Origin: Escherichia coli
Lineage (GTDB): Bacteria > Pseudomonadota > Gammaproteobacteria > Enterobacterales > Enterobacteriaceae
Strand: one strand, 5' to 3'
Assembly (NCBI RefSeq): GCF_048403405.1
Contig: NZ_CP183133.1
DNA: 51,502 nt
Made by a program: the position numbers and the translations under genes. Positions 44,270 through 44,858 of this stretch are shown one piece after another; the first letter of the stretch is position 1, and the number at the start of each line of letters is the position of its first letter. The notes beneath the pieces are model-generated. The model worked only from the letters and a program-made list of their open reading frames with translations. It was not told the origin of the DNA and ran no database searches.

Positions 44270-44720
44270 CCTAGTGGTGTGATCTCACCACGCGGGAATT
44301 CAGTAAACTGGATATGGCGAATATCGTCGCAGTACTACCTATTTGCGCCGTAGAACAACACGGACCTCATCTGCTGGTTCGGGTGTTTGCTGCCATTAAT
44401 GCCAGCATTATTGAGCGAGCTGCAGAATTACTGCCTGCCAATTTACCATGCTGGTGTTGGCCACTTTGCCTGTAGGTAAATCTGACGAACACCTAGCTTA
44501 CCCTGACACACTTTCGTTGCCATATGATGTTCTGGGGAAAGTGTGTTTTGAAATGGCTAAAAGCGCCTGGCGCACAGGTATTCGCAAGATCGTTTTCTGG
44601 AATTCACAAGGCGGCCAGCCCTAATTGATGGAAATGGTTTGTCGCCAGCTGCGCATTGAATTGGAGATGTTTGCCGTCGGTGCCAGCTGCTTCCGCCCCA
44701 AGACCTCCGAGGTGTAAGGC
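44270..44720 (+). pseudogene. Creatininase-family amidohydrolase, frameshifted/stop-containing remnant
   Basis: …VAVLPICAVEQHGPHL… and …IVFWNSQGGQP* interrupted by stops. Confidence 0.35.
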
Positions 44721-44858
44721 GCGTTGAATATCGGGAAGAACCGGCCCGAGGCTCGTAATGGGGGCGCGCAGATTCGCGCCAATCAGCACAATGCTGACGT
44801 ACAAGCCCCAGCGGGAAGTTGTCCTAGTGGGGTTGGAGGGGGAAAGCGCAGAAGACAC
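44700..44858 (-). pseudogene. MFS transporter (CynX-like) N-terminal fragment
   Basis: …YVSIVLIGANLRAPITSLGPVLPDIQRAL… then loss of similarity. Confidence 0.3.

Follow-up and report, generated by a model that had tools for sequence, protein, structure and literature searches.

Remnants of a creatininase-family gene and a CynX/NimT-type transporter gene abut downstream of an intact amide-utilisation operon on Klebsiella IncFIB/IncFII plasmids

The DNA directly downstream of an intact amide-utilisation operon in a 51,502 nucleotide stretch from Escherichia coli (contig NZ_CP183133.1, hereafter the window) is, with high probability, non-functional debris in which two unrelated gene remnants have been joined by illegitimate recombination. 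The first, on the plus strand between 44251 bp and 44696 bp, is a creatininase-family (PF02633) pseudogene retaining codons 1–149 of ~271, or ~55% of the gene. The second, on the minus strand between 44694 bp and 44858 bp, is a CynX/NimT-family MFS transporter remnant of 55 N-terminal codons from a protein of ~390–400 aa. An earlier note on this DNA, made from the letters and their open reading frames, had proposed a creatininase-family pseudogene and a CynX-like transporter fragment, and would have given both up had homology searches returned no creatininase or MFS matches. Both families were matched, by tblastn among other searches, and both identifications stand.

Conceptual translation from the ATG at 44251 bp, which follows a GGAGG ribosome-binding site (44241 bp–44245 bp), matched Pfam PF02633 with an E value of 2.4e-31 and 109 bits, against a gathering cut-off of 31.3, over profile positions 2–130 of 238. 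The remnant begins at this codon and not at 44270 bp, where the earlier note had set its start. Nucleotides 44235 bp–44695 bp showed 78% identity to intact genes on Pantoea megaplasmids and the Enterobacter ludwigii chromosome (pairwise blastn E values of 1e-105 to 1e-110), and this similarity broke off sharply after 44695 bp. These nearest intact genes, of 271–278 codons, were those of the Pantoea sp. SO10 (WP_137387402.1) and X85 (WP_277974972.1) megaplasmids and of the E. ludwigii chromosome; over codons 1–149 they shared 76–81% amino acid identity with the remnant, together with the N-terminus MLKPSSPWW... and the context of the ribosome-binding site. The orthologues were intact, kept all conserved catalytic-site positions and lay in a conserved catabolic cluster, whereas the window copy was cut past codon 149, carried stops and a frameshift, and had lost its native neighbours on both sides.

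Each lesion could be placed by alignment. An in-frame TAG (44272 bp–44274 bp) stood at the codon for Trp8, which is TGG in intact orthologues, and an in-frame TAA (44622 bp–44624 bp) at codon 125, which encodes Gln125 (CAG) in them. Between 44447 bp and 44448 bp a 1-nt deletion shifted the frame, the window reading ACC-ATG where other alleles read ACCGATG, and the 3′ truncation at 44696 bp left nothing beyond codon 149. The joined translation consists of MLKPSSP, a stop and WCDLTTREFSKLDMANIVAVLPICAVEQHGPHLLVRVFAAINASIIERAAELLPANLP and then, after the one-base shift, of MLVLATLPVGKSDEHLAYPDTLSLPYDVLGKVCFEMAKSAWRTGIRKIVFWNSQGGQP, a second stop and LMEMVCRQLRIELEMFAVGASCFR. With two in-frame stops, one frameshift and 149 of ~271 codons, no complete PF02633 domain was found in an uninterrupted frame, and as judged from its sequence the stretch is a pseudogene of the PF02633 family that encodes no member protein.

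At positions invariant across four intact orthologues, the remnant carried 18 private substitutions, including W10C, G32C, P42L, D46F, G86D, W99C, H120Q and W147C. Eight of the 18 score negatively in BLOSUM62, three Trp-to-Cys, a Gly-to-Cys and an Asp-to-Phe change among them, and two more are stops. Asp46 and His120, which were replaced in the plus-strand codons at 44386 bp–44388 bp (D46F) and 44607 bp–44609 bp (H120Q), align with conserved residues of the solved creatininases 1q3k and 1j2t, and we take their equivalents in the published creatininase structures to be metal ligands. The binuclear metal site of the Pseudomonas putida structures is presumably built from the Glu and His of an ExH motif, an Asp ~10 residues later, the His of NxHGG and a C-terminal Glu. 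At the corresponding residues the remnant retained EQHG, had Phe for Asp at codon 46 and Gln for His at codon 120, and lacked the C-terminal part altogether. The P. putida creatinine amidohydrolase (PDB 1j2t, 1q3k) and the putative creatinine amidohydrolase 3lub belong to the same Pfam family and fold family, and the EQHGxH...D and NxHGG motifs aligned, but they are only distant relatives (E values of 1e-12 to 2e-17 for an intact orthologue). Against the NCBIfam creatininase equivalog TIGR04448 the remnant scored 35.4 bits (cut-off 235), and its best NCBIfam match, MftE, was also below the cut-off (61 bits against 172). The ancestral enzyme was probably not a creatininase sensu stricto and is assigned to the PF02633 family only.

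The minus-strand open reading frame that contains the CynX/NimT remnant starts at a GTG at 44858 bp (MSSALSPSNPTRTTSRWGLYVSIVLIGANLRAPITSLGPVLPDIQRALHLGGLGA). Roughly one helix survives, the first transmembrane helix with the motif LIGANLRAPITSLGPVLPDIQ, and the remnant is free of internal stops and frameshifts. Residues 20–52 matched NCBIfam TIGR00896, the profile of CynX/NimT transporters such as the E. coli cyanate transporter CynX, with an E value of 2e-5 and 23.8 bits; the match of the helix-1 motif lay at the profile start (positions 2–34 only), and the cut-off of 406 bits applies to the whole protein, of which the remnant covers a fragment. In a tblastn search of plasmids, the remnant matched genes carrying an MFS or cyanate transporter annotation, at their N-termini. 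An exhaustive phmmer search of 1.84 billion representative proteins revealed a relative with 75% identity (P0127, E 4.4e-10) and two full-length relatives, P0131 (56%, E 1.4e-5) and P0133 (53%, E 7.9e-5). These two matched TIGR00896 with E values of 6e-87 and 1.7e-95, at 292 and 320 bits respectively, below the curated cut-off of 406 bits. The ancestral gene would thus have encoded a CynX/NimT-type MFS transporter, cyanate transport being only putative. Similarity was lost after residue 55 (44694 bp), where P0127 continues ...ALHLDGAGAGVLNALPLL and the window reads ...ALHLGGLGA up to the break and EAAGTDGKH after it. Compared with full-length CynX/NimT proteins, 55 of ~390–400 codons are left, at 53–56% identity to the full-length relatives; homology stops past residue 55, the twelve-helix MFS architecture is not present and the fragment cannot form a transporter. 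Past this point the frame runs on mechanically to 44604 bp, giving an 84-aa chimeric ORF (44604 bp–44858 bp, minus strand) of 55 CynX residues and 29 antisense creatininase residues.

The closest database relatives of the CynX N-terminus were mostly short ORFs of 76–109 aa (the nearest few having 87–95 aa), and full-length transporters were scarce in this set. Such short ORFs were seen in L004 (580 bp–843 bp), L005, L006 (8001 bp–8267 bp) and L029 (10001 bp–11200 bp); in L029 the short ORF, of 87 aa, directly precedes a 306-aa MFS_1 ORF within an integrative conjugative element, and the pair resembles a split gene. Additionally, a 22-nt match of 91% identity was found between 44919 bp–44940 bp of the window and 504 bp–525 bp of L004, a soil metagenome contig (pairwise E 0.002). 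It lies ~60–80 nt upstream of the CynX start in both sequences; it could be a regulatory site conserved from the ancestral transporter gene, or be due to chance.

The two remnants converge, each without its 3′ part, and abut between 44694 bp and 44696 bp with 0–3 nt of microhomology. The creatininase alignment ended at 44696 bp and the CynX alignment at 44694 bp; the CGC triplet between these limits is Arg149 of the creatininase and, read as GCG on the other strand, Ala55 of CynX, and is assignable to either. The limits were set by tblastn of both homologies, by nucleotide alignment to the intact Pantoea gene and by comparison with P0127. No IS end or repeat was found at the joint (44694 bp–44696 bp), consistent with illegitimate recombination or deletion. 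The earlier note had both genes interrupted and overlapping on opposite strands. The homologous segments abut at the junction and only the mechanical ORF (44604 bp–44858 bp) overlaps the creatininase remnant; interruption by stops, a frameshift and a cut holds for the creatininase, and the CynX part is truncated with no internal lesion.

The amide-utilisation operon upstream of the remnants (36243 bp–44075 bp, plus strand) is intact in its Pfam matches, and identical RefSeq proteins are encoded by pKP1-19 and pCREC774-2. Its products are an AmiC-like binding protein, an AmiR/ANTAR regulator, two ABC permeases, a family-5 solute-binding protein, an FmdA/AmdA acetamidase/formamidase and a fused ABC ATPase. 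The exact ATPase sequence occurs in 13,876 blocks of the indexed assembly collection. Upstream of the operon are an intact fecIRABCDE-like iron-uptake operon (27143 bp–34688 bp, minus strand) and a transposase fragment. The spacer from the ATPase stop to the creatininase ATG (44076 bp–44250 bp) contains the hairpin CCGGCGGATTTCCGCCGG in addition to the ribosome-binding site, and is the segment that diverges most between plasmid lineages (1.7–2.3%).

To the right of the CynX remnant, a conserved non-coding element of ~150 nt (45046 bp–45195 bp, plus strand) belongs to neither gene and has weaker similarity back to ~44965 bp. Copies with 77–90% identity were found in ~4,400 PLSDB plasmids (1–4 per plasmid) of Klebsiella, E. 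coli and Enterobacter and in Yersinia pCD1. Where an IncFII-family repA adjoins it (L027, L028, L032), the element begins ~0.7–0.85 kb downstream of the repA stop, a position which we take to be that of the primase 'G site' (single-strand initiation signal) of R1/R100; were it a G site, the element would be a remnant of an IncFII replicon, and we offer this as a lead only. Folding as single-stranded DNA gave non-significant z scores of -1.35 and -1.13, comparison with phage G4-type origins gave no blastn match in 50,697 phage genomes, and no Rfam match was returned for 43900 bp–46100 bp at E values up to 1. Separately, a 53-nt segment (44965 bp–45017 bp) recurs at 96% identity within 'hypothetical protein' annotations of many Klebsiella and E. 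coli plasmids that are otherwise without this region.

Further right, a frameshifted remnant of a DUF2913 gene (45316 bp–45779 bp, plus strand) is cut at its 3′ end, at ~45759 bp, by a 38-bp inverted repeat of the Tn3 family, which is GGGTCCGCTTGGAAAACGGAAAATATCCTACGTTAAG in pKP1-19 (L001, 10660 bp–10697 bp). IS4321 (IS110 family; 45780 bp–47105 bp, minus strand) is inserted in this inverted repeat, presumably the target type that IS4321 uses, and in pKP1-19 this site is empty. IS4321 is followed by an IS5-family element and an IS3-family fragment. From its sequence, the ~1.7 kb around the remnants is a stack of unrelated remnants between the cargo and the old backbone.

Comparison with intact loci, which the earlier note had recommended, was made for five loci (L003, L007, L008, L012 and L013): two Pantoea megaplasmids, the E. 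ludwigii chromosome, Enterobacteriaceae bacterium RIT693 and a metagenomic contig. The creatininase gene was followed by a convergent LysR gene in all five, and past LysR lay genes for a BMP-family binding protein, an ABC ATPase, two permeases, a cupin, an isochorismatase-family hydrolase and an amidohydrolase, the last in four of the five with no match returned for L012 (RIT693). The order of this native cluster was conserved down to ~61–72% protein identity. Neither an FmdA operon nor a CynX gene was found in the five loci. The nine-gene cluster in which the intact orthologues are conserved (L007, 11563 bp–20617 bp; L013, 9989 bp–19508 bp; also L012 and L003) has the appearance of a degradation pathway for a cyclic amide or N-heterocycle.

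Similarity of the window to the native loci began at 44235 bp by blastn, 16 nt upstream of the ATG, so that the joint between the operon and the creatininase gene would also be secondary. Farther upstream, a patchy match to the Pantoea upstream region (17/20) reaches ~44190 bp; it is weak evidence that native sequence may extend back to that point. On the transporter side, P0127, the nearest CynX relative for which the gene context could be read, is a split MFS gene in the cargo of an integrative conjugative element. There was no creatininase gene near it, and no creatininase-CynX neighbourhood was found in the contexts of P0010, P0022, P0125, P0126 and P0127.

A word-indexed search of 5.8 billion proteins for an intact donor returned nothing above 77% identity. 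Scanning the genomes of 100,044 species recovered three loci, namely this remnant again, in Pluralibacter gergoviae, and two intact genes with 77–80% identity, although the peptide patterns of the scan partly contained remnant-specific mutations and were biased against intact donors. The missing C-terminal half of the gene was matched by tblastn only on Pantoea, rhizobial, Roseomonas and Methylobacterium plasmids, and on no Klebsiella plasmid. As no donor genome of >80% identity was found, the order of events (one deletion or several) is a reconstruction.

The earlier note had seen in this stretch an older nitrogen-compound metabolism island that has been eroded. In its full form this reading has the amidase operon, the creatininase gene and the CynX gene once contiguous in one nitrogen-compound utilisation island, later deleted internally, and we consider it improbable. 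All three are plausibly tied to small nitrogen compounds (amides, cyclic amides and cyanate-like anions), yet the five intact loci share a different neighbourhood in which the FmdA operon and CynX have no place, and the readable CynX relative is cargo of an integrative conjugative element. The creatininase remnant is co-oriented with the operon and starts 175 nt past its last gene, but native homology extends only 16 nt upstream of the ATG, or in patches to ~44190 bp at most, and the surrounding 1.7 kb is itself made up of unrelated remnants. A metagenomic relative (L002) in which a creatininase gene adjoins isochorismatase and amidase-signature genes, and the bias of the donor scan described above, count for a single island. 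Taken together, these comparisons favour unrelated fragments assembled as a mosaic over the erosion of one island, so that of the earlier proposal the erosion is retained, on the lesions, the allelic series and the divergence, and the common origin is not.

The 1.2 kb around the remnants showed 100% identity to many Klebsiella IncFIB/IncFII plasmids, for example pKP1-19 (NZ_CP012884). The stretch was also present on plasmids of Raoultella, Enterobacter and E. coli and was near-identical in 5 E. coli genomes. In PLSDB, 383 records matched 44240 bp–44870 bp, 305 of them with at least 80% coverage and 301 at at least 99% identity. The TAG, the TAA, D46F, H120Q and the junction were present in all copies aligned, which came from several genera and included Pluralibacter gergoviae (L011) and Enterobacter ludwigii p11894_1 (L009). 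The alleles of L009 and L011 were without the frameshift and kept Pro42, and the frameshift and P42L are therefore younger than the shared stops and truncation. Protein cluster P0002 (30 members) also lacked the frameshift. The pKLZT-2 allele had an additional nonsense change (GAA-to-TAA). In L017 and L026 the remnant was cut at 44401 bp, where a lac operon adjoins it, and in L021 and L022 at 44209 bp, the amide operon being kept in all four. The two nonsense codons and the two replacements at conserved catalytic-site positions thus predate the divergence of the sampled plasmid lineages, and later drift produced the frameshift of the window allele, the extra nonsense codon of one plasmid and the larger deletions of others. 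Disabling lesions inherited by descent in many records, with no intact copy at the locus, mark the creatininase stretch as a pseudogene throughout the aligned sequences.

Between plasmid lineages, the divergence of the remnant was 4–5 times that of the adjacent intact operon. The window and L011 differed at 6 of 446 remnant sites (1.35%) and at 23 of 7833 operon sites (0.29%; Fisher p = 0.004), and the window and L009 at 5 of 446 (1.12%) and 15 of 5836 (0.26%; Fisher p = 0.011), these counts being small. Constraint on the remnant is relaxed relative to the neighbouring operon. The dN/dS between the remnant and intact orthologues was low (0.06–0.10), which indicates that most of the divergence arose while the gene was still functional and predates its inactivation, and that inactivation was recent relative to the split from the known orthologues. 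For the same reason this ratio was dropped as a measure of decay and the comparison within the lineage was used. Erosion of the creatininase remnant is well supported by several independent lesions, the allelic series and the 4–5 times higher divergence.

In public annotation (PGAP) the stretch carries three CDS, two of them named 'creatininase family protein' (WP_023157916.1, 53 aa; WP_227599551.1, 58 aa) and one, a 66-aa version of the 84-aa chimeric ORF, 'hypothetical protein' (WP_023157917.1). Their coordinates are 44314 bp–44475 bp, 44448 bp–44624 bp and 44604 bp–44804 bp (seen in L001 and L016). They are ordinary CDS with no pseudogene flag, and the fragment 'proteins' have propagated in protein databases as clusters with dozens of members. 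It is very unlikely that these short frames are real genes, with the 53- and 58-aa peptides or the 84-aa chimeric membrane peptide having a function that explains their retention. The unflagged annotation and the retention of the stretch in hundreds of plasmids are what such genes would lead one to expect, but the creatininase fragments are without the conserved Asp and His positions and the whole C-terminal half of the fold, their boundaries are a nonsense codon and a frameshift that is absent from other alleles, and several plasmid lineages dropped the stretch and kept the operon. In most alleles the 84-aa ORF is uninterrupted, and its first part is a bona fide transmembrane helix, although indels among alleles alter its tail and N-terminus (P0121, P0123, P0124). 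The elevated divergence of the remnant also argues against such genes, as does the finding of no sigma-70-like promoter on either strand in 43900 bp–45250 bp; the promoter and terminator scan was at chance level, with a single promoter-like site at 45256 bp–45284 bp, outside the remnant.

Co-option of the debris has an equally slim chance, whether with the 84-aa chimeric ORF acting as a small membrane peptide or with remnant RNA tuning the formamidase operon, a transcribed remnant serving as a 3′ UTR or antisense element; if true, it would help to explain retention in so many Klebsiella plasmids. That the gene is in truth intact, with the stops and the frameshift arising from sequencing or assembly errors, has a negligible probability and is refuted by the population data: single-base indels are frequent in long-read assemblies and the frameshift is missing from some records, but the two stops and the truncation junction recur unchanged in independent records of several genera, the whole stretch is 99–100% identical in ~300 plasmid records, and the missing 3′ half adjoins the remnant in no record searched by tblastn with the C-terminal half.

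Under the preferred reading, that of two unrelated remnants joined as debris, a creatininase-family gene would have been taken from a chromosomal or megaplasmid cluster that degrades a possibly cyclic-amide or N-heterocyclic compound, and a CynX/NimT-type MFS gene would have come to lie convergently to it on an ancestor of the Klebsiella IncFIB/IncFII plasmids. A single deletion or recombination event would then have taken away 45% of the creatininase gene and 86% of the transporter gene, in each case from the 3′ end, along with everything between them. The remnants would have persisted by hitch-hiking beside the intact formamidase/ABC-transport operon on a highly successful plasmid backbone.

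Features of this kind have been described before. Creatininase (crnA) is among the chromosomal families significantly enriched for plasmid pseudogenes, as are lysR and lacI, in a survey that reads such pseudogenes as 'dead on arrival' (PMC11229322, Nucleic Acids Res 2024). That paper is a statistical survey and this locus appears to be a concrete example. To it the present analysis adds a lesion map, the identification of the hypothetical ORF as CynX, the exact position of the junction with this CynX fragment, and the allelic series. The two CDS annotated 'creatininase family protein' and the one annotated 'hypothetical protein' merit pseudogene flags. The junction at 44694 bp–44696 bp and the allelic series (with or without the frameshift, the additional stop, and the deletions to 44401 bp or 44209 bp) may serve as cheap lineage markers for Klebsiella IncFIB/IncFII plasmids. 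The biological weight of the locus is small, and it stands as an example of how remnants gather in the accessory regions of successful resistance and virulence plasmids.
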